Assembly (NCBI GenBank): GCA_964016885.1
Contig: OZ024740.1
Span: 98,766,001 to 98,830,000, forward strand
Direction: 5' to 3'
Source of the DNA: Eledone cirrhosa
Taxonomy: Eukaryota
DNA: 64,000 nucleotides
Position 1 is the stretch's first letter. Every line of letters begins with the position of its first letter. The position numbers and the translations under genes are program-made. The notes under the pieces were generated by a model. It did no database searches. It was not told the origin of the DNA and saw only the letters and a list, made by a program, of their open reading frames with translations. Shown here piece after piece: positions 1,479 through 60,840 of this stretch.

Positions 1479-1479
1479 A

Positions 1480-1660
1480 CCAATGACCATGCTACACAAC
1501 ATAGTACTAACATTCTTCGGCATGCAGGCAGGCCGGCCAAACTGCAAGCTGCAGTGACAGTGACCAAATATTGTTAAAAACTTTCGCAGCAGCACTGGCC
1601 CCCTGGCACACCGCCGTTCTGGCATTTGCCCGGTTGCTCGATAGGCCAATCCGTCAGTGA
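1480..1660. mobile_element. end of a second, non-autonomous hAT-like element interrupted by the first
   Basis: ggcatttgcccggttgctcgataggccaatccgtcagtg resembles hAT subterminal/TIR sequence and is GC-rich relative to its flanks. Confidence 0.45.
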
Positions 1661-1690
1661 GCATCAGTGACATGTATATATATATATATA

Positions 1691-27300: not shown

Positions 27301-28204
27301 AATACCAGGGAGCTACATCTTGCTTATAAAATGTTCTCACACTCTACCAAGAACATTGTATCATGGCAGCAACATTAGGGAGGTAGCCATGTTGTTGACA
27401 CAATTCAAGATACCTCGCACTGATCTATTTCGCAAATTTTAAACAGCTGGATTCCCTTCTTCTCACTGATCTCTTTACAGGTGCATATTTTTGTGGCACC
27501 ATCCCATGGGAAGTGTCATTTATTGACTCAACAGAAGAGCCCTCCCTACTTTGCAGTAGGGTGGGGAGAGGTTATATATAAGAGTAATATATATCATATG
27601 TATATATATATATATATATGAAAATAGAGAAATTAAGGTAAGCAAAAAGCCTACAATGATTAGACATATAAGTGACTATAAACATCAAGATGAAACATTT
27701 TTAACGAAAGATATGGTATAAGTAATATTATCTTAATTCAATAAAATCAAGAAAAAATAATTAACCTGCAATTTGGGAAAACTACAAATACAGTATATAG
27801 TCTTAAAAGACTATTTCACGAGACATATATATACATATATATTGATGAGGTTATAGTTAGTATTAGCCATAAACCTATTTGCTCACAATTAAATAAACCT
27901 ATTTGCTTACACTCCATGAGATATGGTGTGAACGTGTGTTGAGCAAAACTGTTCTCAGAGTGCTAAGATATTGTATATTCATATTAAATATATATATAGG
28001 ATAAATGAATAAAATTCCCATAACTCCTTGTGGAGTCATAGAGTCACTGTCATACGGCATATCTAGGGCACTTTTAAGTATGGCAGAGTGCAATCGTTTC
28101 CAGGACTGAACACAGCTGATTTTTTCTATAGAGGAAGAGTCGGCCCCAGTACTGTTCTGTTATATTTTTATTGACCTACAAAGGATGATCGGCAAAGCTG
28201 ACAA

Positions 28205-30340
28205 CAGAGTATACACGTATATCGACGACGTGCTGGTAGCAAGTACTTCAGAGCAAGAACACGAGAAGCACTTAGATCTTCTCTTCCAACGTTTGGCCGA
28301 TTACGGTATTATCATCAACCCCAGCAAGTGCCTTCTCGACGTTCCTTCATTGTCATTTCTCGGGCACATCATTGATAAAGACGGCATTCGTCCACTTTCT
28401 AAGAAAGTAGAAGCTATCTGCAATTTTCCCGCACCTACATCACTTCGGAAACTGCGTGAATTCCTCGGTTTGGTGAATTTCTATAGGCGTTTCATCCCTC
28501 ATTGTGCCGACGCATCCAGCCTCCTCACGGACCTTCTTCGCAACCGGAGTCGAAAAAACGAAGACATCACTCTGAATGAGGAAGAACTAACATCTTTTAA
28601 CCGCCTGAAGGAAATGTTGGCAAACGCTTCCATGCTCGTTTTCTCCAGATCTGGCGCTCCTCTTTCGCTGCTAGTGGACGCATCATACACGGGGGTTGGA
28701 GGCATTTTACAACAATATGTCGACGGCGTTTGGGAACCCTTATCCTTCTTTTCTAAGCAGTTGCAACCTGCAGAAACCAAATACAGTACGTTTGGCCGCG
28801 AACTCTTGGCAACCTACCTTTCAGTTAAACATCTTCGTCACATGCTTGAAGGATCGGATTTGGTGATCTACACGGACCATAAACCACTAGTTTATGCGTT
28901 CCATACCAAACCTGATCGACATTCACCAAGAGAACTCCGCCACCTGGATTTTGTCTCTCAATATTCAACTGATATTCGGCATATCAAGGGATCCGACAAC
29001 GTAGCAGCCGACACCCTGTCCCAAATCCAGCTGAACACAATACATGTACATTCAGGCATCGACCTTCAACAGATCGCAGCTGACCAAGAGACTGACGAAG
29101 AGTTTATCAAGCTCTGAGATTCGCCATCCCTCAAGTTTCAGAAAGTTCCCATTCCTTTTTCTCCGGAACAAATTTGGTGCGACCTTTCTACCGGGCATGA
29201 ACGACCGTACGTACCACAGATGCATCGTCGGCAAGATTTTTCTGCTTTACACTGTTTGTCTCACCCGGGAATCCGGGCTACACAGAAACTCATCTCTGCT
29301 CGTTTTGTGTGGACTAACATTACCAAGGACGTGCGCGACTGTTCCAGAAGCTGCACTGCCTGCCAGAAGGCCAAAGTCCACAGACACATCAAAACGCCAC
29401 TCAGCACATTTGCGCCACCTGATGCACGTTTTCATCATGTGCATATCGAGATCGTCGGACTTCTACCACCATCACAGAACTGCGCACACATGCTCACCTG
29501 CATAGATCGATTTTCCCGTTGGCCTGAGGCTTTTCCCATAAGTGATACCTCAGCGGAAACAGTCGCTAAAACCTTGGTTTTATACTGGGTATCACGTAAT
29601 GGCGCCCCAGCGAAGATAACAACGGACAGAGGATGCCAATTTGACTCCCACCTCTTCAGAGAACTGACTCACTTGTTAGGATGTAAACACATCCGCACGA
29701 CAGCTTTATCACCCGCAAGCTAATGGTCTCGTGGAAAGATTCCATCGCCAATTGAAAGCTGCCATAAAAGCGTATCAAGACAAGACCCACTGGTTTGAAT
29801 ACCTGCCACTCATCCTTCTGGGCATTCGATCGACCGTTAAGGAAGAATTCGGACACACACCTGCAGAATTAGTGTACGGCACCACCCTGGTTCTACCTGG
29901 TCAGATGGTTGCTCCCATCTCTCCTCAGGACGTTCCAGACCCAGGATCATACGTACACCATCTTCGACAATATATGTCTCACATTGCTCCTGCAAGCACT
30001 CGTCAACAGAACACGGCCACACATGTACCTTCGGACATTAATGATTGGACATACGTTTTCGTTCGAAACGACACAATCTCAGCTCATCTTCGACCTCCAT
30101 ATTCTGGCCCTTACCGTGTTCTAAAAAAATATCCGAAATATTTTATTCTCGATCAAGATGGTAAACAGAATTCTGTCAGCGTGGACAGATTAAAAAAAGC
30201 CATCATGGATACAGTTACAGTCTCTACACCAGAAGCTCCAACAGATAGCTGTCCCAGCAAGCCACCTGTTTCATCTCCAGTCACGAGAAGTGGACGACGT
30301 GTCCATTGGCCCGCTAAGTTGGCACAATATGTGAATTACC
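28205..30340 (+). pseudogene. pol: Gypsy pol (RT, RNase H, integrase); stop at 29115 and frameshifts near 29230 and 29705
   Basis: YIDDVLVAS, FLGHIID, LREFLGLVNFYRRF, LVDASYTGVGGILQQ, YTDHKPL, SHPG..CTAC, ITTDRG, ERFHRQLK, PYSGPYRV. Confidence 0.92.
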
Positions 30341-30515
30341 GTGAACCTCAAGTGAGTTTCTTAATCATTCTTCTTGCAAAACATTTCCATTGTCCTTGTG
30401 TTTACTATTTCCAGTTTCAAATACAATGAACTTTCTGCTTGAACAATTGCAATTATTTAGTGACCATGTGCTCATGTCATTGTCACGAAGAACATTATTT
30501 ATTATAAACATTATG

Positions 30516-33654: not shown

Positions 33655-36366
33655 TATAACATGTGGTTGTAAGTTCATTATTTACATCAACGTATCATTT
33701 AAGACTAGCAGTTTGAAATTGTGGTATACATCAGCAGCCCCGCTTGTATATTTGGGGTCTATATTCTAAGGGGGCTCTTTTATATTAGTTGTCGGAATTG
33801 TAAAAGGGATGGGTTATGGGGAGTTAAGGGAATTTGAAAATGGCCTGAGAGTCAGGGATTGAAGGTTAAAAATTAGATAATTTATAATTTACGCAGTAAA
33901 AGTAAAAGACTTGGGATCTCGTAGAAGCACCTTAAAAAATCCCTCAATAAGTCCATAAAGCTTACAAGCCCCAATAAACTTAACAAACTAGAAGAGATTA
34001 AGAGACTAATAAAATAAAATAAAATAAAATAAAATAAAATAAAATAAAATAAAATAAAATAAAATAAAATAAAATAAAATTAAATTAAAAAATTAAAAAA
34101 TAAAGATATAAAGTTTCCCTAAAAAAATATAAAGTTTTCCAAGAAGTTCCCTCGAGAGATAAAAATTTCTTTCGAAAGAAAAAAACTTTCTTCCCCAGAG
34201 ATCTCGTTAAAAAATTTCAGAAAAAGTTTTGATAATCTCTACTAAGTTGAAAGAAACTAACCAATTAAAGATTAATTCAAAAAGCCTTCAATAAACCCCT
34301 CAGAAAAGGCCCCTTTAATATTTTTAATAGGAACCTCCTCCGAGAGACCCTTCGAAGAATTAAAATTTTAGAGAGCCTTTAAGGATATATATAAACGAAT
34401 TGAGGAAAATTATAAATTAAAAGTTAAAAATTACGGTATTTGGGATATCCGAGGAATTTTCAAAGGGCTGCTTCAACAGATACAACTTAGGTATAATAGA
34501 TGAAATAATTTAAGTAATTTAAGTAATTTGATTAGGGAGCAATTCAAAGGGCTTATCAAGTTGGGCAAGATTAAAGAAAATTATAAGTAAGAAAATACAT
34601 AAGCAAAAAGACAATAATTATAAAATGTATTTTTAAAAAACAATAATTATAAAATGTATTTTTAAGAAGGTATAAGGTAGCTTAGGTAATCTAATAATGT
34701 ACTATCAAAAAATTATTATAAAATTATCACAAAATTATTATAAAATTATTATAAAATTATTACAATATTATCAGAAAACTATTGATACAGGATTAAAAAA
34801 TTACTAAAAAATTATTGATACAGGATTAACATAGACATAATAATATATTCCTACCTAATTAACAAAAAATCAATAAACAATTAACGGTCAAGCAAAATTA
34901 GCTCAGGGATATCCCGCTCTCATGCACACATACAGCATCCCATATGATTAACAAAGACATAATGGTATACCCCTGCGTAATTAACAAACAATCAATTAAC
35001 AATTGATAGTCAAGAAAATGTACTCGGGGATATCCCACGCACGGATACTTTACACACATACAGCAGGATAAACAATACAGGTGACCTTGTGGGCGCGATA
35101 TCCATTATGCGTATGTAGTCATCTGCATAGCCCCAGGCACATTTGGTCTTGTTTAAAAGTTCAGAGTTCACGAATCAACTGGGATTCACTATCAGCTGCG
35201 TGGACTCTCTGGGAAATGTACCTGTGGATCAAATAGCTAGTGGTTGCTGGGTGTGGTCCGTTTGATCTTTTAGTTTCGGGGATTGCAGGCTGCCGGTTCT
35301 AAATTCAAGGTCTCGCTGCATAGGATGTATTGGCTTACATGCTATATTGGTAAAAAAAACCCAGTGTGGGTTTGACTGGGGTGGTATACTACGAACTCCA
35401 AGCACACACGCGACTGGTCAAATGCGAAGGGCTGTCCCCTCTTTGTTTGTTGTAGGGGTCGGTTCCAGCTTAGATGTTGGTCGTGTTATCCATATTGCGT
35501 CAGCCATGCATATACCAAGACAGGTCTGTATATATTTGTGGGTATGGTTCGGCGTCTACGCTATCCAAAGGGTCTCTCCTGTGTTATTTTCAAGTTTTGT
35601 CATCTCCCGGTTAAGACTGCGCATGCTTCGGTGAATCTTATGCATGGAATATTGGGGTATCATATTACACGGGGTGACTAGCAGAAAATATATATTCCAT
35701 GCTATCGCGCACGCGCTGGCCTGTGGCTACGACCGTGTCCAGTCTCGGGTAGTAGCAGACAGCAGGTAGACCAGCTAGACACACCCCTGCTCAAGGGGCA
35801 CAACCCCTAACTAATCGAGTGGTCAGACATCAAGGGAGTCAACTCTCCAAGTCCATTAAGTCAACCGTGGTAATATACAAAAAAATCACTATTAATAAAG
35901 AACTAACTCAACAAGAAGCACTATAATAAAGAAGAACTAACTCAACAAGAAGTGAGTGTGGGAGAATGGGTAGTGGCATCTATTTGGGCGGGGGTTTGTT
36001 AGGGGAGGAGGGGGGTTTGATTAGTTATAGGCAGGGAGCGGCCGCCATATTGGGTGTTCTGTTACTGTTTCCTTTGGCAAGTTCCCGTATTTGTTGACAT
36101 ACATCTCCGACGGCACCTCCCCAGATTAGTCAACGTGGGTCCAGGCACTCACAATGTCCCACACCGCAGGCATCATCTGCCCGCAGGGTGCCCAGCAACA
36201 AAGGTACCACCAATCCCAGGTTGGCAATAGGGACACAGGGTCGACTGTTCCTCACCATAGTCCCCATCGGCAATCGGGGAGCCGAGGCATCAATGCGGCC
36301 GGGGTTACTAAAGAGCACCCTGTTCGCCAGTGGGGCAGCCATGTGCGGGACAGGGTGGGGTCAGGG

Positions 36367-38930
36367 CTATGTGTCTGGTCTGAAGAAAAAGAAAGAGCTA
36401 AGTATAGTGTGGGGGCAGGACGAGAAGATTTCTAATCTCCTGTTGAGCAAGTTGAGTCCTGAGAACACTATGGCATGAGATTCAGTTAGGCACAGGATAC
36501 AAAACCTGCTCAACGAGCTATATGGAGGAGCTTTAGTAAGGCATCTCCAGCTTAGTGTGTAGGGGTTTTTTGTTTGTTTTAAGTTATGTATGTGCCCCGC
36601 TAACGACGTGGTATTTTTAAGCTTCTCATACCGGAAGCTATGCTGGTGGGCGTTGAATCTCGTCTTGAACTGGTTAGCGGTTGATCCCACATACGTCTTA
36701 GTATACGTGTCTGTGGTTACGTTACATGCATATACTACGTTCCTAATAAGGCAGTGTCCAGCTAGTGGGCATTTGCCCTTCCGTCTGCAATTATATTTTC
36801 TAATAGGGTCATGCTCCTCAATCAGGGATGCATGTCCCTCCAAGCGACCGCGGGGCTGCCTAGTGGGACCAGTTTTATTGCCTGTTATCCCCCTGGGTCT
36901 TTCACTCAGTGGGTTGGTCCCGTGTTGTCGTGTGTACTGGCGTGGTTCACTATTTCGGATGGCCTTAAGTCCCTCTTTAATCTTACTCTTATTGGTCTTA
37001 GCTATGTGTGAGGCCAGATTAGGGGTTGCTGAGTACGATAGTTTGATAGTATTCTTATTGATGACACTACCGTACCTACTACCTGGGGGGAAGTTCCTAT
37101 CTATTAAAGAGAAAAAAAGATTTGGGGAGGTCTGTAGTAACATTAGAGTTGAAGGGCGGGTTAAAGAAGGTAATATCACGTCTTCTATTCTTTCCACTGC
37201 GTTTCTTATCCCCTATGCTGCTTACCCTCCCTTCATCTATATTACTACGGGTTCTACCAGGTGTGGTTGCTGGGTTCCCAGTGGTATATGTTTTGGTCTC
37301 GAGTCTCCTAGGCCTCTGGCCCCCGTTTTCACTGTTGGACTTGCTTGGGGCGGCGTAGTGTCTGCATTGCTAGTGTTGTTGTTCTTAGCTAAATTCCTAT
37401 TGTCCCTATTCGTCTTTCTAACTCTCCCTCCATCTCCCATGGACATATTATGCGTGATTACAGTGCTGGGTTGGGGTGGTGAGGTGGTGCCGCTTGTCTC
37501 TACATAATGGAGTTTATCTTTGTGCCCTGACCCAGCTAGTGCATTATTGTAATACTCCGCGTTCGCTTCAAATGCGGTCACGCTGCTAGATAGTCCGCTA
37601 ATCCTACTAGACACTCCCTTAACTATTGCTTTGAGGACTGAGCCTGGGTGGTTGGAGTTGGCATTGACGTATGTCAGCCTCTCGTTAGGATTATGGTATG
37701 GTGCATATTCTAATTTATCTAGGTCTAGTGTGGCATCTAGAAAGTTGACTACCTTGCTATTTCTATCCATAGTTATTGATAGGTTAAAGTTCTTGAAGAA
37801 TTTATATAGGTCCTTTCTAGTTTGTGTCGTTTAAAGTCCACAGTAAGCAATGCGTCGTTACGGTATAACCCACCTCTGAGGTGTGGGAACTGCTCGTTGA
37901 GCTCCTTGAGCAAGTACAATCCGACGAGGTCTGTCACCTGTGCTGAGTCACAAGACACCATAGTGATGTCGAAGTTGTTACGAGTGTTCTTGCGCGTCCA
38001 CAATTCATCCTCAAATGTGATAATTGTTTTACGAGCGGCAAGGACTATGTCAGTCTGGGATCTAGTGCGTCCGCCCGTCCGCATTGCCATCATGAGCGCC
38101 TTATTCAGTAGTATGGGGGATATAGACGTAGAGTAGGAGTCTATATCGAACTGGATGAAACGTAGTGATTTGTGGTTGCTAATGCTTGAGAACCACTTTA
38201 TCACTTCTGCAGTGTTTCCCCATAGGTCCAGGCTAATCTTGTACTTAACTTTCGGTATGACTTCAACTAGTTTTTTTTTTATTTATTTACTTATAATCCC
38301 TATGTCAGATTTAGAGAGGCTAATGAGCCTGACAGAGGGGATACTTGCAAAGTCCTCCTTATGATCTTTCAATGTGAAACTTGGTTGTCGGGGTGTGTAA
38401 GGTTGTGTGCATTTCTCTAATCCTAGCTTCGTTACTATCACTTTAACCTCCCTGTTAATCTCATTTATGTTGGCTACAGTGTTTTTTTTATAGTTTTTAT
38501 GTAGCTCATTGTATATGAATCCGCGGTATTCTTCATAACTCAGGTTGTACATATTCCTAGCCTTGTCCGAGGGTACGAGTATACAGTTTCTGTCCTTAAA
38601 AGATTTAACTAGTGATTCTAACTTAATTTGGAAGCCGCTACGCTTACCGTTTTTCCTTTTATACCTAATAGACCGGACGAGAGACAATAGGTCACTCTCC
38701 AACTTATCGAGTAGAGGATTATGGGGCGGGCTCCTAAATGTCCTAAATCCATAATTATTATTCGATGGACTCTCTAGTGGGGCGCTACGGCGCCTATCGA
38801 AGTGGAATGTGCGCCATCTTATTCTCCTTACAAACGAGTTAACGCTGGCTATAAGCTGCTTTTCGTAAGTACCCCTTGGTGGTATGGGTATATTCTTAAG
38901 TGATAACGGAAGATGGTCCTTCGTCAGCAT
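36367..38930 (-). pseudogene. PLE RT + C-terminal GIY-YIG endonuclease, frameshifted
   Basis: SLKNIPIP..SFVRRIRWR, PSDKARNMY, TLKDHK..VRLI, QFDIDSY, FDITM..DSAQVTDLVG, GGLYRND (YRDD mutated), VNFLDATLDL, NCRRKGKCPL, VVYAC..YVGST..FKTRFNAH, CILCLTE. Confidence 0.92.
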
Positions 38931-38945
38931 ACTGTCAGTGTATTG

Positions 38946-39634
38946 AGAATACTATCGAACTATCGAACTCAACAACCCCTAATCTGGCCTCACACATAGC
39001 TAAGACCAATAAGAGTAAGATTAAAGAGGGACTTAAGGCCATCCGTAATAGTGAACCACGCCAGTACACACGACAACACGGGACCAACCCACTGAATGAA
39101 AGACCCAGGGGGATAACAGGCAATAGAACCGGTCCCACTAGGCAGCCCCGCGGCCGCTTGGAGGGACATGAACCCCTGATTGAGGAGCATGACCCTATTA
39201 GAAAGTGTAATTGCAGACGGAAGGGCAAATGCCCACTAGCTGGACACTGCCTTATTAGCAACGTAGTATATCCATGTAACGTAACCACAGACACGTATAC
39301 TAAGACGTATGTGGGATCAACCGCTAACCAGTTCAAGACGAGATTCAACGCCCACCAGCATAGCTTCCGGTATGAGAAGCTTAAAAATACCACGTCGTTA
39401 GCGGGGCACATACATAACTTAAAACAAACAAAAACCCCCTATACACTAAGCTAGAGATGCCTTACTAAAGCTCCTCCATATAGCTCGTTGAGGAGGTTTT
39501 GTATCCTGTGTCTAACTGAATCTCATGCCATAGTATTCTCAGGACTCAACTTGCTCAACTGGAGATCAGAAATCTTCTCGTCCTGCCCCCACACTATACT
39601 TAGCTCTTTCTTTTTCTTCAGACCAGACACATAG
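38946..39634 (+). pseudogene. inverted second copy of the PLE linker + GIY-YIG endonuclease
   Basis: CNCRRKGKCPLAGHCLISNVVYPC..YVGSTANQFKTRFNAH; premature TAG at 39452. Confidence 0.9.
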
Positions 39635-42542
39635 CCCTGACCCCACCCTGTCCAGCACATGGCTGCCCCACTGGCGAACAGGGTGCTCTTTAGTAACCCC
39701 GGCCGCATTGATGCCTCGGCTCCCCGATTGCCGATGGGGACTATGGTGAGGAACAGTCGACCCTGTGTCCCTATTGCCAACCTGGGATTGGTGGCAGCTT
39801 TGTTACTGGGCACCCTGCGGGCAGATGATGCCTGCGGTGTGGGACATTGTGAGTGCCTGGACCCACGTTGACTAATCGGGGGAGGTGCCGTTGGAGATGT
39901 ATGTCAACAAATACGGGAACTTGCCAACGGAAACAGTAACAGAACACCCAATATGGCGGCCGCTCCCTGCCTATAACTAATCAAACCCCCCTCCTCCCCT
40001 AATAAACCCCCGCCCAAATAAATGCCCCTACCCATTCTCCCCCACTCACTTCTTTTGAGTTAGTTCTTCTTTATTATAGTGCTTCTTGTTGAGTTAGTTC
40101 TTTATTAATAGTGATTTTTTTGTATATTACCACGGTTGACTTAATGGGCTTGGAGAGTTGACTCCCTTGTGTCTGACCACTCGATAAGTTAGGGGTTGTG
40201 CCCCTTGAGCAGGGGTGTCTCTAGCTGGTCTACCTGCTGTCTGCTACTACCCGAGACTGGACAGGGTCGTAGCCACAGGCCAGCGCGTGCGCGATAGCAT
40301 GGAATATATATTTTCTGCTAGTCACCCCGTGTAATATGATACCCCAATATTCCATGCATGAGATTCACCGAAGCATGCGCAGTCTTAACCGGGAGATGAC
40401 AAACGAACTTGAAAATAACACAGGAGAGACCCTTTGGATAGCGTAGACGCCGGACCATACCCACAAATATATACAGACCTGTCTTTGTATATGCATGGCT
40501 GACGCAATATGGATAACACGACCAACATCTAAGCTGGAACCGACCCCTACAACAAACAAAGAGGGGACAGCCCTTCGCATTTGACCAGTCGCGTGTGTGC
40601 TTTGAGTTCGTTGTATACCACCCCAGTCAAACCCACACTGGTTTTTTTTACCAATATAGCATGTAAACCAATACATCCTATGCAGCGAGACCTTGAATTT
40701 ACAACCGGCACCGTGCAATCTCCGAAACTAAAAGATCAAACGGACCACACCCAGCAACCACTAGCTATTTGATCCACAGGTACATTTCCCAGAGAGTCCA
40801 CGCAGCTGATAGTGAATCCCAGTTGATTCGTGAACTCTGAACTTTTAAACAAGACCAAATGTGCCTGGGGCTATGCAGATGACTACATACGCATAATGGA
40901 TATCGCGCCCACAAGGTCACCTGTATTGTTTATCCTGCTGTATGTGTGTAAAGTATCCGTGCGTGGGATATCCCTGAGTACATTTTCTTGACTATCAATT
41001 GTTAATTGATTGTTTGTTAATTACGCAGGGGTATACCATTATGTCTTTGTTAATCATATGGGATGCTGTATGTGTGCATGAGAGCGGGATATCCCTGAGC
41101 TAATTTTGCTTGACCGTTAATTGTTTATTGATTTTTTGTTAATTAGGTAGGAATATATTATTATGTCTATGTTAATCCTGTATCAATCATTTTTTAGTAA
41201 TTTTTTAATCCTGTATCAATAGTTTTCTGATAATATTGTAATAATTTTATAATAATTTTATAATAATTTTTTGATAGTACATTATTAGATTACCTAAGCT
41301 ACCTTATACCTTCTTAAAAATACATTTTATAATTATTGTTTTTTAAAAATACATTTATAATTATTGTCTTTTTGCTTATGTATTTTCTTACTTATAATTT
41401 ACTGATAATCCTATATCAATAGTTTTGTGATAATTTTGTAATCATTTTATAATAATTTTATAATAATTTTGTGATCATTTTATAATAATTTTTTGATAGT
41501 ACATTATTAGATTACTGAAGCTACCCTATACCTTCTTAATAATACATATTATAATTATTGTTTCTTAAAAATACATTTTATAATTATTGTTTTTTTAAAA
41601 TATATTTTATAATTATTGTCTTTTTGCTTATGTATTTTCTTACTTATAATTTTCTTTAATCTTGCCCAACTTGATAAGCTCTTTGAATTGCTCCCTAATC
41701 AAATTACTTAAATTACTTAAATTATTTTATCTATTATACCTAAGTTGTATCTGTTGAAGCAGCCCTTTGAAAATTCCTCGGATATCCCAAATACCGTAAT
41801 TTTTAACTTTTAATTTATAATTTTCCTCAATTCGTTTATATATATCGTTAAAGGCTCTCTAAAATGTTAATTCTTCGAAGGGTCTCTCGGAGGAGGTTCC
41901 TATTAAAAATATTAAAGGGGCCTTTTCTGAGGGGTTTATTGAAGGCTTTTTGAATTAACCTTTAATTGATTAGTTTCTTTCAACTTAGTAGAGATTATCA
42001 AAACTTCGTAAATTTTCTGAAATTTTTTAACGAGATCTCTGGGGAAGAAAGTTTTTTTCTTTCGGAAGAAATTTTTATCTCTCGAGGGAACTTCTTGGAA
42101 AACTTTATATTTTTTTAGGGAAACTTTATATCTTTAATTTTAAATTTTTTTATTTTATTTTATTTTATTTTATTTTATTTTATTTTATTAGTCTCTTAAT
42201 CTCTTCTAGTTTGTTAAGTTTATTGGGGCTTGTAAGCTTTATGCACTTATTGAGGGATTTTTTAAGGTGCTTCTACGAGATCCCAAGTCTTTTACTTTTA
42301 CTGCGTAAATTATAAATTATCTAATTTTTAACCTTCAATCCCTGACTCTCAGGGCATTTTCAAATTCTCTTAACTCCCCATAACCCATCCCTTTTACAAT
42401 TCCGACAACTAATATAAAAGAGCCCCCTTAGAATATAGACCCCAAATATACAAGCGGAGCTGCTGATGTATACCACAATTTCAAACTGCTAGTCTTAAGT
42501 GATACGTTGATGTAAATAATGAACTTACAATCACATGTTATA

Positions 42543-42872: not shown

Positions 42873-43060
42873 GAAACGTATGATCCCGACGGCAGAGCTC
42901 AAGCCGTTTCGACGGCTATTTCGAGTCCAGAAACAGCCGCCGAAACGGCTTGATCTCTGCCGTCGGGGTAATAATTTTTCCTATTTCCCACTCTACTACC
43001 CTAAGTATTGAGTACTCTGGTGCGTTATGGTCCATCTGGTTCCTTACCACATTACCTTCG

Positions 43061-43062
<2 letters not shown>
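42873..43062 (+). mobile_element. half-hammerhead hairpin element (PLE 3'-end derivative)
   Basis: Palindrome 42873-42980 centred on gagtcca; the right arm has GAAACGGC..GCCGTC; unique tail runs into (TA)n. Confidence 0.7.
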
Positions 43063-43124
<62 letters not shown>

Positions 43125-43139
43125 ATATATATATATATG

Positions 43140-43330
43140 TGTAACCAAGGAGTTGTGGTAAAGATTCAGATAGAACATAACGCACCAAAGTACTCAATAC
43201 TTAGCGTAGTAGAGTGGATAATAGGAGAAAGTATGACCCCGACAGCAGAGTTCAAGCCATTTCGATGGCTATTTCTGGAAGAAGCCGTCAAAACGGCTTG
43301 AGCTCTGCCGTCAGGTCATAATTTCTCCTA
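43140..43330 (-). mobile_element. half-hammerhead hairpin element, opposite orientation
   Basis: Reverse complement of the 42873-43062 family; hairpin at 43221-43330. Confidence 0.7.
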
Positions 43331-44836: not shown

Positions 44837-45038
44837 ATAGGAAAATGTTTGACTCCGACGGCAGAGCTCAAGCCGTTTCGACGGCTATTTCTGGACTCAG
44901 TCCAGAAATAGCCGTAGAAATGGCTTGAGCTCTGCTGTCGGGGTCAAACATTTTCCTATTACCCACTCTACTACCCTAAGTATAGAGTACTCTGGTTCGT
45001 TATGATCCACCTGGTTCCTTACCACACTTCCTTTGTTA
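44837..45038 (+). mobile_element. half-hammerhead hairpin element
   Basis: Near-perfect palindrome 44837-44959 centred on ggact-c-agtcc, then the same tail as 42980-43062 into (TA)n. Confidence 0.75.
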
Positions 45039-45220
45039 TATATATATATATATATATACATTTATGGGTGATGGCTGAGTATAAAGAGTACTCACTATTT
45101 TATTAAGACTAAATAGCAAGTCTTGTTACACTGTAGCTTTACCTGTTTATCACAGAGTCATCAAAGAAGAAATAAATTCCAATAACAGACACAGTATAAA
45201 TAAATAAATATTTATGCTTA

Positions 45221-45300: not shown

Positions 45301-45530
45301 ATATATATGTATGTATATATATAAGTATGAATACGTACATACATATATGTATACAGACGTACAGTAGTATGTATATATATATAAATGCACACACATATAT
45401 ATATATATGTACGTATGGATTCACCGAACATTTATTATAATGCTCGGTGTGTTTGTAAACAAACATCCCGAATTAAGCCGTACAGTGTCTAGCAACCATC
45501 GTTGCTCATGTGTTCAACACTGACAAAGGA

Positions 45531-45573
45531 ACGCTGTACTAGTTTCAAGCTTATTAGCTATCGTCAGCAACGT
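45531..45573 (-). ncRNA. type I minimal hammerhead ribozyme
   Basis: Reverse complement of 46364-46406. Confidence 0.8.
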
Positions 45574-46281
45574 ATACCTTCCTGCCAGATGATTGAACGG
45601 CTGAAAGTATATACTTTCCTTAAGCGTATTAACGGCTGACCAGCCTAATTTGCATATCGAGTGAGTTAATCGGCCGGGCGCACCGAAAACGATAAACGGA
45701 AAAATGAAACGAAATTTCATTTCTCACTCTTAGTACGGCTGTTACTTAAATATAAGTATGTATACGTACATACATATATGTATACAGACGTACAGTAGTA
45801 TGTATATATATATACATACATGCACACATATATATGTACGTATGGATTCACCGAACATTTATTATAATGCTCGGTGTGTTTGTAAACAAACATCCCGAAT
45901 TAAGCCGTAAAGTGTCTAACAACCATCGATAGCTAATAAGCTTGAAACTAGTAGAGCGTTCATTTGTCAGTGTTGAACAAATGAGCAACGATGGTTGCTA
46001 GACACTGTACGGCTTAATTCGGGATGTTTGTTTACAAACACACCGAGCATTATAATAAATGTTCAGTGAATCCATACGTACATATATATATGTGTGCATG
46101 TATGTATTTATACATACTACTGTATATATATATATGTATATACATACTGTATATACATATATGTATGTACGGATACATACTTATATTTAAGTAACAGACG
46201 TACTAAGAGTGAAAAATGAAATTTCGTTTCATTTTTTCCGTTTATCGTTTTCGGTGCGCCCGGCCGATTAACTCACTCGAT

Positions 46282-46289
46282 ATGCAAAT
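46282..46289 (+). promoter_or_regulatory. octamer motif ATGCAAAT in the retrozyme-like unit
   Basis: Exact octamer 88 nt upstream of the HHR core; retained in the diverged copy (19824-19831). Function is inferred. Confidence 0.4.
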
Positions 46290-46363
46290 TAGGCTGCTCA
46301 GCCGTTAATATGCATAAGGAAAGTATATACTTTCAGACGTTCAATCATCTGGCAGGAAGGTAT

Positions 46364-46406
46364 ACGTTGCTGACGATAGCTAATAAGCTTGAAACTAGTA
46401 CAGCGT
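46364..46406 (+). ncRNA. type I minimal hammerhead ribozyme
   Basis: acgttg-CTGACGA-t agct aata agct t-GAAAC ta GTA-cagcgt; 6-bp stem I, palindromic ACTAGT stem III, GUA triplet. Confidence 0.8.
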
Positions 46407-46664
46407 TCCTTTGTCAGTGTTGAACAAAAGAGCAACGATGGTTGCTAAACACTGTTCGGCTTAATTCGGGTTGTTTGTTTTCAAACACACCGAGCATTAT
46501 AAAAAATGTTCGGTAAATCCATACGTACATATATATATATGTGTGTGCATGTATGTATATATATATACATATTACTGTACGTCTGTATACATATATGTAT
46601 TTACGTATACATACTTATATTTATTTATATATATATATTTATTTTCTATATATATATATTTATT

Positions 46665-47039: not shown

Positions 47040-47169
47040 GTAGGAGGTGAGTTTTATTGTAGTACAATAAAGCAATGCAGATATCGGATAAGAAGCACTC
47101 TACAGTTTGTAGGACTGGAGAGTATACATAATATATAAGAACAAAAGATGGTTAAAAGTGTTCCATGTA

Positions 47170-47236
47170 TTTTATTATGAGTATTTCAAAAACAAATATC
47201 ATCATGCAATAATATTTGTGTTTTCATCAGATAAAA
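47170..47236 (-). ncRNA. hammerhead ribozyme
   Basis: Mirror of 48431-48497, with stem III loop actc. Confidence 0.7.
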
Positions 47237-48430
47237 CAGGAAGACATGATATGAAGTTTAAAAAACACTTGTGGATAGTTCAGTTTTAAATCAACATATG
47301 AGAAGTAGTTTTAGATTGATGTGTGATATTGGGAAAAATATTTTATTTAGAGGGGGTGGGGGTGGACAGGATGAAAAAGAGGAGGAGATGAGAGTAAAAA
47401 CTGGAGAGGGAGGAGTATAATGAGGAAGGATGAGATAGGAGGAGAGATGGGTGATAGAGAGAGAGAGATAGCTTTTATAACTGAGAAAGATATATTGTTT
47501 TACATAGAGAGGTTGAAAACCGTTGGAAGGTAATGTATAAATTAGAAGAATTTGAAGATTAACGAAGAGAAAAATAATGTAAAGTTAAGGTTTGTATATT
47601 GAGGGGTTTGATAATATGTGCGATGAAAAAGAAAATGTTAATATGTATTGAGAATAATATTTAAGGGTTTAATAATATGTGCGATGTTAAGAGAATGTTG
47701 ATATGTATTATTAAAAGGAACAACAGGTTATTTAAGTAAGGAAATATTGTGAGATGAGCATGAATGAGTTAGATGAAAGGGAGAAAAGAATAATGAATTG
47801 AGGATGAATAATCTAACGTCAAACAAATGTATACTCTATATCACCTTGTAAAAATCCTACATTTTTTTGACGTTAGATTATTCATCCTCAATTCATTATT
47901 TTTTTCTCCCTTTCATCTAACTCATTCACGGTCATCTCACAATATTTCCTCACTTAAATAACCTGTTGTTCCTTTTAATAATACATATCAACATTCTCTT
48001 AACATCGCACATATTATTAAACCCTTAAATATTATTCTCAATACATATTAACATTTTCTTTTTCATCGCACATATTATCAAACCCCTCAATATACAAACC
48101 TTAACTTTACATTATTTTTCTCTTTGTTAATTTTCAAAGTCTTTTAATTTATACATTACCTTCCAACGGTTTTCAACCTCTCTATGTAAAACAATATATC
48201 GTTCTCAGTTATAAAAGCTATCTCTCTCTCCTCCTATCTCATCCTTCCTCATTATACTCCCCCTTCTCCACTTTTTACTCTCATCTCCTCCTCTTGTTCA
48301 TCCTTTCCACCCCCCTCTAAATAAAATATTTTTCCCAATATCACACATCAATCTAAAACTACTTCTCATATGTTGATTTAAAACTGAACTATCCACAAGT
48401 GTTTTTTAACCTTCATATCATGTCTTCCTG

Positions 48431-48497
48431 TTTTATCTGATGAAAACACAAATATTATTGCATGATGATATTTGTTTTTGAAATGTGCATAATAAAA
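48431..48497 (+). ncRNA. hammerhead ribozyme
   Basis: ttttat-CTGATGA-aaacacaaatattattgcatgatgatatttgttttt-GAAAT gtgc ATA-ataaaa. Confidence 0.72.
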
Positions 48498-49399
48498 TAC
48501 ATGGAACTCTTTTAACCATCTTTTGTTCTTATATATTATATATATATATATATATATTTTATCAGATGTATTTTATATATAAATATATATATTTTATTAG
48601 ATGATTCTATGTACATTACTCTGATTGTTGATTATTTAATTAATTAATTCGTCATCGAGCCGCATCGTGAATGGTTGCCCAAAACACATATATATATCTA
48701 TGGCTTTGTCTAGTTTATGTATATGTAAATCTGTATATTTGATAATCTCCCATATGGTTGAGATAACATTTAGGCAGTATTAGACTTCGCTTTCTAGCAA
48801 CCAGCCCACTCGCCGTAAGGCACTAATCACAAACTTTCTGACTTGACCACTAGCCACGCCACAGTTGTTAACTATTTTTTATTCGTTTCTGGCGTGGATC
48901 ATTTAAGAAAAATCTTTGTCCAATGGAGTTTGTTTCCTGATGATTTCGAAACTCGTGAATTTATCCTTGATCGGATATTTCCAAAAAGCGAATAAAATCT
49001 CATGGGGTAGGGACATGATTTTTGTATGCTTATATACATTTTCTTTTCTAACTTTGTTTTGTACCTAATTGTGTATGGTCGACGATATATCTAATCGATT
49101 TCCACGTGCTATTAGAAATATGGGTAAATATTCTATGGATGTTGATCGCGGATAGATAGCTATCGTTTATTTATCTATTGTTTCTTCAGAGGTGCCTTTT
49201 AATCTTATAGCCTTGTATAATTGATTTTTTGTATATATATATATGATGGCTGCCCTCTCGTTATCGAGTATGGCCATTGCACGAGAAAAAAAAATTAATA
49301 ACAATAATAATAATAACAACAATAATAAAACGACAACAACAACAATAATAATATATATATATACACACACACGCACACACATTAACATATCTATGCACA

Positions 49400-50790: not shown

Positions 50791-51330
50791 TATATATATA
50801 TACACATATATATGTATATATATATGAGTGTTGCTGGTAGCATATAACCTAGTACAACCTGTCAGCGACTAAACTGGAAACCCCACCAACTTCGCTTGGT
50901 GAGGAGGGTGATTTTGGACACCCTGCAGGACAAAACACAAAACCTGACAAAGGACAGAAGAGCTCATAAGAGTCAAAGGCCATCTAAAAATTATAATCCT
51001 GCTAAATCAATGGGTGGCAGTAGTTCCAGCTGCACGCATCGAAAGACTAGTGTAGTGGTTCTGAGAACAATGCAGCTTTGCAGATGATCAATGCTAATTG
51101 ATAATGGAAAGGTGGCCCCGCTCGAGTTAGAAGAGAACTATTGACCTTCAGGAGAAGCAGTGACCCTTGATTGCATTCAGCAACTGAAACAAATATGAAG
51201 TATATATAAATATATATGAAACACAAGTTTTTTATATTTTGAAGACCAAAACTATGCATATGAAAAATGTTAAACGATGATACTAATAAAATTAAACAAT
51301 GTTTCAAGCAAGCTACAAAACTCTGTTATA

Positions 51331-51372
<42 letters not shown>

Positions 51373-51378
<6 letters not shown>

Positions 51379-52178
51379 ATACTTTGGGAGGGTCGTGTTG
51401 CCAATAAGAAACGCACGCACCAGTTGTTTTCACTTCAATTTATTATAATAAATTTATAAATTTAGGAATTTATAAATTTCCGGGTGGGTGGTTGGTTCCA
51501 CAACCAGATGATTGTTTATATATTGTCAAAGTTATTTCGTCTCACATTCTGTGACCTCTTCAGTGACTGGGGATTATTTTCTTTGATTTTGTGCCTCTCC
51601 TTTGTTCTGTCCTACGCCATCTTGTTTTTGTGTGTGTTGTGTGCTTAGGTTGCGCATGTGTTACATCCGGGTCGCTGTGTGTGTTTATATGTGTTTATTT
51701 ATTTGTTTATTTACATGTTACTGGTTGGTTGTTTGTTCAATGTGCGTGTGTGTTTTCATTTTGTCCTTAATTGTAAGTTGTGATGTTGCTGTTCCATTCA
51801 TGTTGTCTATTTAATTTTGGTTGGAGTTCATTTATATTTATTGCCGCTGCGATTTGTCTAAACATTGCGTCTTTTCTGTGTGTAGATTCTATTTTTATTT
51901 CTATGTTCTCTAATTTACCCTTATGTTCTATTTTAGCATGTTGGTAGAGTAAAGATGATTCTTTACTATCTTGAAGTTCTCGGCAGTGTTCATTTATCCG
52001 TTCCCCTATACTACGAGCTGTCTCACCTATGTACACTGTATTCTTATCTATACATTGTCCTTCAGTACATCTTATGCTATATACTACATTTCTAGTTTTA
52101 CAGTTAATATGGGGGCTTAATTTACAGATTATAAATTTCTTATCTATACAGGGAGACCTCCCTGTATATATAAGAAAT
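51373..52178 (-). mobile_element. 5'-truncated PLE (Nematis-like): GIY-YIG, 3' UTR and HHR
   Basis: YIGETARSIGERINEH..LYQHAKIEH..RQIAAAINI..LNRQHEW; terminus gaccctcccaaagtataacaat runs into (TA)n. Confidence 0.85.
51525..51567 (-). ncRNA. hammerhead ribozyme (stem III imperfect)
   Basis: Minus strand: gtca-CTGAAGA-ggtcaca gaa tgtgagac-GAAA taa CTT-tgac. Confidence 0.65.
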
Positions 52179-52239
52179 GTATATATATATATAAGAAATG
52201 TATCTATATATATATAAATAAGAAATGTATATATATATT

Positions 52240-53515
52240 AACGTGACAGATTAAGGTTTAAGCAAAGAATCGCTGCTTTCACCCTTAACGGGATCTCCTG
52301 AAACTAAAAAAAAGAATCCATCTGTGAATGCAGAAGTATATATTTCGAAAAGCTATGCAACCAAAGGAACACAGGAAGACGCTATTTTGGTTCGTGAAGA
52401 CGTTCCCTTGCAATGAACAAAAAATAAGCGGAGATAATACGTCATTATGCGGAGCGAGAGAACAAATACACGCAAAAACAAACCAAGGTTATGGTATAAA
52501 TGGAATCATAGACTTATATTCTATTTAGGAAGCCGAATGAATCTCGGCTTCGGAGTTAAATATAATGTAAATAAATTAGTAGAACGAAAATGACAGAGGT
52601 TATTAAAATCATAAAAGTAACGATAACTAAATATATACATACACACATCTATATACACATGTACCCGCACACATACAAACTTATACACCAAATACACATA
52701 TAAAAATATATGTGTGTGTATATACATATAATTATATAAATATATATAAATATACGCAGATAACTACAAATGTAACTCACACACACACAAATATACCTAC
52801 AGGTAAATACACATATGTTCACCAAACGTACATATACGAAACCTCAATGTACACATATCCACACCTTACATGCGTGCAAACACGCATACATGCACAAACA
52901 CGAAATACACATAACCGTGTACACACATACCAGTAAAAATAATATATACGCCTATAACAAATACAAGCATATATACGTACGAGAAAGTATACGTACCAAC
53001 ACAAAACATACATATAAGGTATACTTACCTATACAAATAAGTAATGATATAAATATAAAATATACTTAGCTACCACATCAAGATGTAAATAATCCGCGTA
53101 TTGTTCGTATTATCCGTTAGGGTATAATGTGGGGCCGTAATACAGAAAAGTTTTATGCAATTTGTGTTTGCAAGCCGAAATTGCCTCAGATTTTTTTGCT
53201 TAAGATGCGATCATTGCGTAAAGTATTTCCAGGGCTTCATCGGCGCAAAGATCACATGGACTTTTATTTCAGTTATACGATCTAGCTTTAACTAGGATAA
53301 CCCAGTATAACCTATATTGGGTGTTATTGTCTTTTAGACTCCAGATATAAGCTGAAAGTGACATCATATTCCTTCTTAAAGGGTTAAGTAAAGAATGGGT
53401 GTGCATGTAAAGACGCTGCTTGAATCTATTGGTGGTTAACCCTATGTAGGCCCTACTAGACGTGGGTGTTTCGACCTTACATTTGTAGACAATGTTACTG
53501 GAGAGGCATTTCCCG
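52240..53515 (-). mobile_element. 5'-truncated Hydra-type PLE (GIY-YIG and 3' UTR)
   Basis: AGKCLSSNIVYKCKV..AYIGLTTNRFKQRLYMH..SLSAYIWSLKD..CDLCADE..ISACKH. The 3' extent is approximate. Confidence 0.8.
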
Positions 53516-53531
53516 GCTCTCATCAAGGAGA

Positions 53532-55185
53532 CTTAAAGATCTCCTTGATGAGAGCTCCATAGACCTCATGTACTCTCGTTACGTAGACGATTTCAATATA
53601 GTTATAAGAACATCCCCACAAGAGAGCACTAACAAATTTGATTTAGAACGTAGCACAATGGAAAGCATCCAGCAGCTAGCTAATTCCATACACCAGAGTA
53701 TAACTGTAACTATCGACTACCCTTCCAAACACCCTAACAATAGACTACCTGTATTAGACACGGAACTCTGGATTAACACTATACACGAGAGAGCCCAAAT
53801 TCTCCACTCACACTATGCTAAACCCATGGCCTCCAAATACCTGATACTCAAAAACTCAGCAATGTCCAGTAGTGCTAAGTTTAATATTCTGATCGCAGAC
53901 TTGGTACGAGTGATGAAGAACATGTCTCGCATGTGCGACCCAACAGAAATGGAAAGACACATCCAACACTTCATCAACCGCATGCAGTTCTCTGGCTACA
54001 ACCAAATAGACAGAATTAGAGTATACGAAGGAGCCACGGAGAAGTATAAGACCCTCATAGAACTGGACATGAAAGGAATTTGCCCATTATACAGGAGCAA
54101 ATCATGGAATAGCTTAGATAGGGCTGGACATAAGATAGGGAAGCCATCTCATGGTACGACAACGAGAGATATCAGAGTGTCATGTTTGTGGACGCTACCC
54201 CTGGAAGGAAATTAGCTAACCAGTGTAGAAAGGCCATGAGAAGGTCCCACTTAAAGATTAAGGTGGTAGAAAAGCCAGGAACCACCATAAAATCCCTGAT
54301 CAGCAAAACCTACCCTTACAGAGGGTACTTGCAGAAACATGACAACAACATACATAGGCGAGACAGTTCGTAGCATAGATGAAAGGATAGACTAACACTG
54401 GGGGGGAAATAAAAGGACGAAAAAACGGTTCAGTACTATACGAACATGCCAGACAACACAACGGTAACATAGAACACATAGAAATTAGAATAATATCTAA
54501 ACATAGAAATGACCCAGCAGATAGGCAAATCAGAGAGGCCAGTGAAATAGAACTTAGAAGGCCAAGGCTAAACAGAAAAAATGAATGCAATAACAACAAC
54601 ACCCAAACAAACAACACTGACCTAAGAGAAGTATAAATAAATAAATAAATATATAAATAAATAAATACATACACAAGCACAATAACAACAAACACATATA
54701 AACACACTAGTAAAGATAGAATACATTAACCAATACACAGTCACCCAATCACGAACACACATCAAACAAAACACTATACACACACGCAAAGAAGACAAAA
54801 AAAAATAATAATAAAATAAACAAATAAATAAATATATAAACAGACTAAATAATGATGGCGTAGAAAATACAATGTAACGAGAAGAAACAATAGCACCACT
54901 GACGATATTGCAGATGTGCAACGAAAGAACTTTGATAGACTATATATATGTGTTTGTGTCTATATTGTATCTGTATTTTTTGACCGTTGGTCAGTTAATG
55001 GCAACATTGAGGACCGAATAAATTAAACTAACCGATATAAAAGATACAGAAGCGAAAAGCGAAAACCAACCAAACAGTGAGTGTGTTCTGTTATTAATTC
55101 TGGCAATATTAAACAAATATGACCCTCCCAAAGTATAACAATATTTGTTTCGACACACGATTTCATATAAAAAAACCTCGCAAAA
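53532..55185 (+). mobile_element. 5'-truncated PLE (Nematis-like): RT C-terminal half, GIY-YIG, pLTR
   Basis: SRYVDD, RLPVLD, HYAKPMAS, MQFSGY, MFVDATPG, KVVEKPG, YIGET, RQIREA; frameshifts and a ~100-bp deletion near 54320 relative to the 60.4-60.8 kb copy. Confidence 0.9.
54891..54942 (+). ncRNA. hammerhead ribozyme
   Basis: cacca-CTGACGA-tattgca gatg tgcaac-GAAAG aa CTT-tgatag. Confidence 0.6.
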
Positions 55186-55195
55186 CTCTCTCTCC

Positions 55196-55249
<54 letters not shown>

Positions 55250-55252
<3 letters not shown>

Positions 55253-59906: not shown

Positions 59907-60790
59907 TTATTATGTTCCCTCCTATTGTATTGTATTGTATTGTAATGTCTATGCCATTTTTATTTTATTTATATATTTACTCTTGCCTCCATCTCTGCAC
60001 ATGTGTTTGCGTGTGTGTATAATGTTTGGTGTGTGTGTTCGCGTTTGGGTGTATGTGTTTTGGTTTTTGTATTCTATCTTTGTTTACTAGTGTGTGTTTA
60101 TATGTGTTTGTTGTTATTTTACTTGTGTATATATTTATTTATTTATATTTCGCTTGAGTCAGTATTGTGTGTTTGGGTGTTGTTGTTATTTCATTCATTT
60201 TTTTCTGTTTAACTTCGGTCTTCTTATTTCTATCTCAGTTGCTTCTCTGATTTGCCTACCTGTAGAATCTATGTTTAGATATTATTTCAATTTCTATGTT
60301 GTCTATGTTACCGTCATGTCTTTGTCTGGCGTGTTCGTATAGTACTGAGCCGTTTTTTTGTCCTTTTAGTTCTCCCCAGAGTTAGTCTCTTGTTTCTCCA
60401 ATGCTTCGAGCTGTCTCACCTATGTATGTCGTTGTCATGTTTCTGCAAGTAACCTCTTTACATCCTATGCTATAGAATACAATTGTAGTTTTACAGTTTA
60501 TCTGGGGGTTCATTTTACAAATAACACATGTCTTATTAGTATAGTGGGTTTTCTTAAAGGGGTATGTTTTGCTGATCACGGATTTTATGGTAGTTCCTGG
60601 CTTTTCTACCACATTAATCTTTAAGTGGGTCTTTCTTAGGGCCCTTCTATATTGGTTAGCTAATTTCACCCCAGGGGTAGCATCCAGGAACATGACATTC
60701 TGGTATCTCTGGTTGTCATACCATGAAGTGGGTTTCCCTATCTTATGTTTAGTCCTATCTAGGCTATTCCATGATTTGTTCCTGAATAAT

Positions 60791-60840
60791 GGTACCACTG
60801 ATGATGTTGCAGATGTGCAACGAAAGAACTTTCATAGACT
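60791..60840 (+). ncRNA. hammerhead ribozyme at the inversion junction
   Basis: tacca-CTGATGA-tgttgca gatg tgcaac-GAAAG aa CTT-tcata. Confidence 0.6.

Follow-up and report, generated by a model that had tools for sequence, protein, structure and literature searches.

The segment between positions 45303 and 46636 of a 64,000-nt stretch of Eledone cirrhosa DNA (the window) carries hammerhead ribozymes preceded by an octamer, which raises the question of what such a unit is and how it could be transcribed and copied. The initial annotation proposed a candidate retrozyme, and our analysis bears this out: a short non-coding tandem unit with a type I hammerhead occurs both as dispersed copies and as arrays with Penelope-type ends. 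Judged from these sequence traits, the unit is a non-autonomous non-LTR retrozyme.

Two-armed structure of the locus and its ribozymes

The locus consists of two arms placed head-to-head within a TA tract, with ~1.4 units on the minus strand and ~1.6 units on the plus strand. The unit is ~440 bp long (range 422-447 nt in its subfamily, A1), and the copies at the locus are 86-94% identical to one another. Alignment resolved one full and one truncated copy per arm, confirming the earlier description of a ~430-bp non-coding tandem unit in ~1.4 and ~1.6 copies on opposite strands. The longest ATG open reading frame in a dimer is 52 aa in A1 and 43 aa in the related family B, and the units are thus non-coding. 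The features of the locus are:

45303-45746, minus strand: full retrozyme unit of subfamily A1, left arm; 94% identical to the plus copy over 447 nt, tail-less 3′ end in the TA tract
45531-45573, minus strand: type I hammerhead, intact, left arm; predicted cleavage after 45537
45606-45656, minus strand: octamer block of the left arm, with TATGCAAATTAG at 45656-45645, TCAGC, and TATA at 45613; predicted start 45583
45747-45928, minus strand: 5′-truncated unit, left arm; unit positions 247-434, without promoter block and without ribozyme
45925-45930, no strand: head-to-head junction of two 5′-truncated ends; ATCGAT at 45925, 2-nt overlap
45927-46189, plus strand: 5′-truncated unit, right arm, from unit position 185; ribozyme without its 5′ core and with stem I changed
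46186-46243, plus strand: ~57-nt "tail" segment with a hairpin and a T6 run at 46232-46237; alternative 3′ end in many other insertions
46190-46636, plus strand: full retrozyme unit of subfamily A1, right arm; tail-less 3′ end near 46620 in the TA tract
46281-46292, plus strand: TATGCAAATTAG of the right arm, a word that recurs as the -77 element of U6, U6atac and RNase MRP genes; it also forms the 5′ arm of an RNA hairpin at 46281-46316
46298-46302, plus strand: TCAGC, 26 nt before the TATA box, in the place of TCAGT in U1/U2/RNase P promoters
46319-46334, plus strand: GAAAGTATATACTTTC palindrome with the TATA box (46324); putative transcription start at 46354
46364-46406, plus strand: type I hammerhead, intact, right arm; stem I extends over 46352-46414, predicted cleavage after 46400 (GUA)

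The octamer ATGCAAAT lies at 46282 (plus) and 45655 (minus), in both full units exactly 88 nt upstream of the CTGACGA of the core (46370 plus, 45567 minus), just as the initial annotation had reported. The palindrome that it had noted in each unit is present at 45603 and 46319, with the added meaning that it holds the TATA box. The placement of the unit between TA-rich tracts was accurate in that the arms sit in a TA tract, but some of the TA-rich sequence is internal to the unit; target-site duplications could not be made out within the TA tracts. The inversion had also been placed at ATCGAT inside the ribozyme core. One breakpoint, at unit position 185, does fall in the core, but the other, at 247, lies outside it, and a targeting of inversions to the ribozyme was rejected: of 48 family-A breakpoints, 5 fell in the hammerhead region, whose share of the length predicts 13%; this is a rough count in which some of the ends fall outside the query. 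Since the breakpoints show no preference for the ribozyme, the ATCGAT inversion point is incidental.

Both full units carry the core CTGACGA-stem II-GAAAC TA GTA with a 6-bp stem I. A hammerhead descriptor scanned over the whole window gave four matches, and only the two in the full units combine a compact canonical core with an octamer at most 140 nt upstream. Rfam returned no hammerhead at E≤1 from the whole window, its matches being mostly hairpin or miRNA chance matches; applied to 111 nt, it found Hammerhead_HH9 with 19.7 bits (E 0.006), whereas the gathering score is 52. Among 35 distinct cores (231 copies, from partly overlapping loci), nine of ten stem positions were paired in 83-100% of variants. 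The tenth is a U.U at the base of stem II, which may weaken cleavage and also occurs in the axolotl ribozyme HHR_Amex2. In ten variants hand-picked to span the subfamilies, 93% of cells were paired, 7 of 12 pairs had changes on both sides, and 20 cells were doubly changed compared to 7.3 after shuffling, a number reached in 0 of 500 shuffles by a control that ignores relatedness. The variants thereby support a ribozyme fold covarying across subfamilies, though the curated Rfam threshold is not reached.

The minimal hammerhead of Penelope-like elements (PLEs) is defined by the lack of helix III and a long helix II (PMC4209133). We rejected this class here, as helix III has 2 bp and helix II four positions; by the definitions of the same source, the ribozyme is a canonical metazoan type I hammerhead whose palindromic helix III is short and which should act best as a dimer. 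Of the "intact minimal type I" ribozyme first described, "type I" and, for the full units, "intact" therefore stand, whereas "minimal" gives way to "canonical". In a two-strand fold the dimer reached -16.6 kcal/mol, as opposed to -10.6 kcal/mol for a pair of monomers lacking stem III; we did not count this as support because an alternative duplex was lower still (-20.7). Eight of nine Xenopus retrozyme dimers failed to cleave in vitro (Li et al. 2026).

At least two consecutive intact ribozymes, the criterion of Li et al. (2026), are found in arrays of the family elsewhere in the genome and not at this locus, where each arm has a single intact ribozyme and the truncated copies lack the promoter block. 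The locus therefore cannot yield a doubly cut monomer, circles would come from the arrays, and this 1.4 + 1.6 insertion is likely a dead end.

A promoter-like block ahead of the ribozyme

The octamer had been taken for an snRNA-type promoter element, to be compared with the U1 and U2 genes of the species. The extended word TATGSWAATKAG was found at -76 to -78, together with TATA at -30, in all five distinct promoters of three U6, the U6atac and the RNase MRP genes; 14 weaker U6 matches without a U6-type promoter (likely pseudogenes) and five of the six U6atac loci were left out. The octamer was present in none of 12 U2 promoters, none of 8 U3 promoters and one of 12 U1 promoters, there at -399, and U1/U2 genes were thus discarded as its source. 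The word is therefore a promoter element as proposed, but one belonging to U6, U6atac and MRP. What U1 and U2 genes do have is TCAGT, at -56 to -58 in 8/8 of the promoters shown; RNase P has it at -66, and U3 promoters have TCATT in its place (read by eye). The TCAGC of the unit stands exactly 26 nt before its own TATA, and 6 of 10 family representatives have an exact TCAG at TATA-26/-27, compared to 6 of 273 TATA boxes in the window. Octamer and TCAG were together in no host gene examined (U1, U2, U3 and RNase P lack the octamer; U6, U6atac and MRP lack TCAG), and Rfam gave no match at 20 further octamer+TATA loci, hence no host RNA gene with a hybrid promoter among them. By its words, the octamer is part of a hybrid promoter-like block that joins the U6/U6atac/MRP octamer to a U1/U2-type TCAG and TATA.

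With a matrix built from the five U6/U6atac/MRP promoters, the unit ranked first of 127,952 window positions at 15.6 bits, within the leave-one-out range of the genes themselves (13.8-22.4 bits), although an unrelated window site scored nearly as high (15.4 bits). The unit departs from U6-type promoters in two respects. Its TATATAC at 46324 begins 42 nt after the octamer, a distance also found in A2 and B, compared to 46-48 in the host genes; and the distal element WTTAYYTCCCTT, present in 11 of 14 snRNA promoters at -258 to -289 and missing from U6atac, MRP and one U2 gene, is absent from A1 (best 6.8 bits compared to 17-22). Outside the TA-rich end, the 12-mer TATGCAAATTAG is the longest exact word common to A1 and family B. 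We take the extended octamer word to fit the consensus of POU-factor sites.

The same layout extends to more diverged families. A genome pattern of octamer plus TATA at U6 spacing gave 709 matches compared to 70 for the control. Among 49 octamer+TATA loci examined, 14 (11/29 and 3/20) had a hammerhead core 75-160 nt downstream, compared to 0.8% of random positions, and several further ones showed decayed cores by eye. Families C-G, defined from these loci (L146-L174, L223-L242), are 38-63% identical to A, B and one another over 140-150 nt. About seven diverged hammerhead families thus have octamer and TATA ahead of the ribozyme, in C-G by construction, since the search pattern demanded both. 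An imperfect TCAG is found in B, D, F and one copy of G. From octamer to TCAG the distance is 16 in families A, B, D, E and F but 21-22 in C and G, whereas that from TCAG to TATA remains near 26-27 throughout; for this reason TCAG and TATA look like a fixed core, to which the octamer would be an added activator site. The octamer-to-TATA spacing is 4-5 nt short of the host genes in A, B, D and E, and only C and G have 47-48.

Since the promoter words that precede the ribozyme are common to host snRNA genes, the unit likely transcribes itself, and we infer a working promoter starting near 46354 (TATA+30; C|A). Which polymerase would use it is bound up with T-runs that occupy corresponding positions where the tail ends, T6 in A1, T7 in A2 and T5 in B; in family C, T6-T8 directly follows the ribozyme. 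Runs of T5-T7 would stop Pol III before a full monomer, and thus before the next ribozyme, and Pol II is therefore favoured, from the T-runs and the TCAG word, as the probable, if by no means assured, polymerase. Pol III we hold to be rather unlikely, and transcription from the block by neither enzyme improbable.

Alternatively, Pol III could transcribe the same retrozyme in SINE-like fashion, using a U6-type promoter, with the T-run of the tail as terminator and full units made by read-through only. Among the genes examined, the octamer word occurs only in those of Pol III type, the spacing in families C and G is exactly that of U6 (47-48), the T5-T7 run keeps its place in A1, A2 and B, and schistosome hammerhead repeats are transcribed by Pol III (PMC6765202, PMC2220036). 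Yet termination at the T-run would leave the transcript without the promoter, of which ~25,000 copies exist, and in family C the T6-T8 run comes directly after the ribozyme; moreover, the octamer-TATA spacing of A, B, D and E is too short and TCAG is a mark of U1/U2-type genes. We regard this version as quite unlikely.

Distinctly improbable, in our estimate, is a retrozyme without a promoter, in which RNA structure or recognition by the reverse transcriptase (RT) would preserve the octamer, TCAG and TATA words and RNA would arise by read-through from host or PLE promoters. The octamer does form the 5′ arm of a conserved predicted RNA hairpin, and the conservation of the word may therefore owe something to RNA structure. 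In A1, A2 and B alike, both octamer and TATA fall within predicted hairpins, and a spacing unlike that of host genes and the missing distal element would also suit this explanation. Against it, the octamer arm of the hairpin is invariant while its 3′ arm varies (a C.U mismatch in A2 and B), octamer and TCAG match host promoter words, with TCAG at the host distance from TATA, and hammerhead cores follow octamer+TATA far above chance (the 14 of 49 loci compared to 0.8%). An intron reading, based on GTAAGT/GTGAGT in the tail and TTAG/G at the octamer and judged by eye, was rejected: relative to the branch-like word, the pyrimidine tract is on the wrong side.

Three observations concern the host genes themselves. 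The RNase P RNA gene (L124) has a U1/U2-type promoter, with TCAGT, a doubled distal element and no octamer, unlike U6/U6atac/MRP, and may be transcribed by Pol II. The U1, U2 and U3 genes (L031-L066, L215-L222) carry a TATA-like box at -30. A family-B retrozyme lies directly upstream of the first gene fetched from a U1 array (L053:1-613).

The genome-wide family and its probable Penelope-like partner

A check of copy number in the 3.0-Gb genome, as the initial annotation had suggested, found the family to be very abundant: the hammerhead pattern matched 40,326 times compared to 6 for a reversed control, and the octamer pattern TATGCAAATTAGNCTG 25,436 times compared to 3, both counts pooling A1, A2 and family B. 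A similarity search with the unit returned 2004 candidates, of which the best 40 scored 96-98% identity apart from the self hit. A2 is 82-89% and family B 62% identical to A1, and A1/A2 variants are present in contigs of sequencing runs X1, X2, X4, X5 and X6. These contigs gave no starts, ends or strand of a transcript, and the three runs of low depth were set aside as evidence for taxa or expression; of six runs listed as containing the sequence, none is recorded as RNA. Arrays include seven consecutive plus-strand A1 units (L138) and ~30 B units (L112-L113), with constant cut-to-cut lengths (422-426, 466, 484-502 and 461-467 nt). The fold of the unit had a z of -4.5 as a linear molecule and, with 25 shuffles each, -8 to -10 as circles.

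In 72 loci whose insertion anatomy was analysed, 3′ ends were fixed in (TA)n and 5′ ends scattered; 27 of the 72 were head-to-head and 50 had the tail. In 20 loci chosen for the absence of the exact octamer pattern, 5′ truncations showed no evident preference for the predicted start. PLE-type ends of this kind, together with one chimera between a Neptune-like PLE and the retrozyme (below), fit the earlier proposal of PLE-type mobilisation; the action of the enzyme is what such ends would imply.

The candidate partner is a TA-targeting PLE with 26,835 candidates in the genome and copies at 51300-55250 and 60380-60830 of the window. An intact copy (L206) has a 1273-aa frame with a C-terminal GIY-YIG preceded by CX5CXXC. 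We call it Neptune-like because of its domain order and the CX5CXXC before GIY-YIG, Pfam giving only a weak RVT_1 and one GIY-YIG. It bears a minimal hammerhead and a 3′ end that differ from those of the retrozyme, targets TA and may end in a tail of ~56 nt; the ends of retrozyme unit and Neptune share no detectable common sequence. PLE coding pieces occurred in 18 of 102 element loci, and in one of these the two elements are directly fused (L183/L243). In this locus (L243, G000:C2:177648357-177653385), the inverted arm is a Neptune 3′ end, and the forward arm joins Neptune nt 448-3243 to A2 position 119, followed by 2.8 tandem A2 units up to the fixed 3′ end of the family. Both ends are embedded in TA; the 3′ part that Neptune lacks was not found after the array. 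The simplest reading of this sequence is one integration during which the template changed from retrozyme RNA to PLE RNA, although an insertion plus a deletion could also explain it; it is a single locus of the 102, drawn from 40 selected for Neptune, and its units belong to A2, not A1. A Neptune-type PLE is likely, from these junctions and ends, to be the partner that copies the retrozyme. Decayed Penelope/Poseidon-type PLE copies in partial tandem, with RT and GIY-YIG frames, also occupy 35200-40750 of the window.

The initial annotation had allowed that the unit might be nothing but the pseudo-LTR (pLTR) of a coding PLE. Such a remnant would have been left by 5′ truncation. The insertion anatomy is fully PLE-like and vertebrate retrozymes derive from pLTRs (Li et al. 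2026). However, a PLE frame lies directly upstream on the same strand in only 1 of 102 loci, where the junction interrupts it, the tail is directly followed by the promoter block of the unit itself, arrays consist of 7 to ~30 pure units, and the Neptune-like element differs in its 3′ end and in having a minimal ribozyme. For the two PLE families to which the comparison extended, this reading is largely refuted, and we consider it very improbable overall, the small number of families leaving it some room. A plain satellite or foldback repeat spread at the DNA level with a fossil ribozyme would agree with the long arrays, the hairpin-rich sequence and the fact that no RNA was seen, but hardly deserves credence, given that fixed 3′ ends, scattered 5′ truncations, tails and TA targeting are marks of retrotransposition, that the ribozyme stems covary and that the copies are young, as the identity of the best 40 attests.

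A proposed cycle and its relation to known systems

We therefore return to the retrozyme with its own block and consider it reasonably likely that a protein-free element with a promoter-like block is transcribed from arrays, cut to probably circular RNA and copied into TA tracts by a Neptune-type PLE. In such a cycle, tandem arrays would be transcribed from the internal block, and successive ribozymes would cut after GUA, assisted by dimer formation, to release unit-length RNAs that begin at the position of 46401 and carry the promoter inside. A host ligase might close these into circles, by analogy to the retrozymes of PMC7229834. The Neptune-like enzyme would then cut a TA tract and copy the RNA from the fixed 3′ end on both strands, the ends being observed and the enzymology conjectural. 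Reverse transcription could proceed for more than one round of the unit and stop at random, and joining of the 5′ ends by microhomology would give the 1.4 + 1.6 head-to-head form.

Non-LTR retrozymes have been described in coral, mussel and axolotl (Cervera and de la Pena 2020, PMC7229834), and vertebrate ones have been linked to pLTRs (Li et al. 2026, bioRxiv 10.64898/2026.07.22.740005), with no mollusc among the classes given as sampled in the accessible text. The unit resembles the retrozymes of both studies as a low-GC non-coding tandem repeat with a canonical type I hammerhead that co-occurs with PLEs and exists as monomers, partial tandems and arrays. It differs in lying at or above the upper end of their size range (150-450 bp), and the accessible text of neither study describes an internal promoter, two-armed insertions or a chimera with a named partner PLE. 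RNA and circles were demonstrated in those systems, whereas the present family is known from DNA. In animals, transcription of retrozymes and the enzyme that copies them have been proposed rather than shown (PMC7229834; Li et al. 2026). The family described here supplies a promoter-like block with a predicted start, a predicted cut site, young arrays and a candidate 1273-aa partner, making each step testable.

Coats and colleagues are said to have reported the octamer in newt satellite 2 in 1994. This satellite is a hammerhead repeat with a Pol II snRNA promoter and unit-length transcripts (PMC2114352; PMC2220036, PMC6765202), and the unit shares with it the combination of a hammerhead repeat and internal snRNA-type promoter words, whose function is predicted here. 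Unlike in the newt, the block mixes a U6/U6atac/MRP octamer with a U1/U2 TCAG and a TATA and recurs in about seven families, and no homology is expected. The Pol III promoter of schistosome Sm-alpha is internal and of the tRNA type. Sm-alpha is alike in that a promoter precedes the hammerhead in tandem units, single copies being dead ends and the upstream unit transcribing the next one (PMC6765202, PMC2220036), but unlike its Pol III promoter, the block here has upstream-type snRNA words. In their 5′ truncation, partial tandems, inverted 5′-truncated arm, optional tail and (TA)n targets, the insertions match those of EN+ PLEs of the Neptune/Nematis type (Craig et al. 2021, PMC8557442), from which the unit differs by having no ORF, a canonical rather than a minimal ribozyme and a tail of 57-70 nt compared to 30-40 bp.

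The retrozyme class as such is thus already known, as is a hammerhead paired with an snRNA promoter. The giant squid genome paper counted 235 hammerhead hits without further study, the accessible text of PMC7229834 makes no mention of octopus, cephalopod or octamer, and a literature search, with most subscription journals outside its coverage, found no paper on cephalopod retrozymes or on a retrozyme with such a promoter; looking up the sequence itself also gave no result. More tentatively, the families may form a retrozyme clan with a mosaic snRNA promoter found in no host gene examined, in which promoter-bearing circles would serve one Neptune RT as templates, an invention parallel to newt satellite 2. 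If true, this would name a promoter, a ribozyme and an enzyme for reconstituting the retrozyme cycle. The ~25,000 copies of a POU-type octamer beside a TATA box could also affect host transcription.

Other repeats surround the locus in the window. A different short and very common element lies at 42980-43330 and 44837-45065; it forms head-to-head pairs, has (TA)n ends and a hammerhead-like 3′ half, and was present in 34 of 222 loci. A long inverted repeat at 47060-48600, with arms at 47123-47831 and 47858-48544 that are 94-97% identical, is probably another two-armed insertion. Frameshifted RT, RNase H and integrase frames at 28110-30429 presumably belong, from their motifs, to a Gypsy-type LTR retrotransposon.
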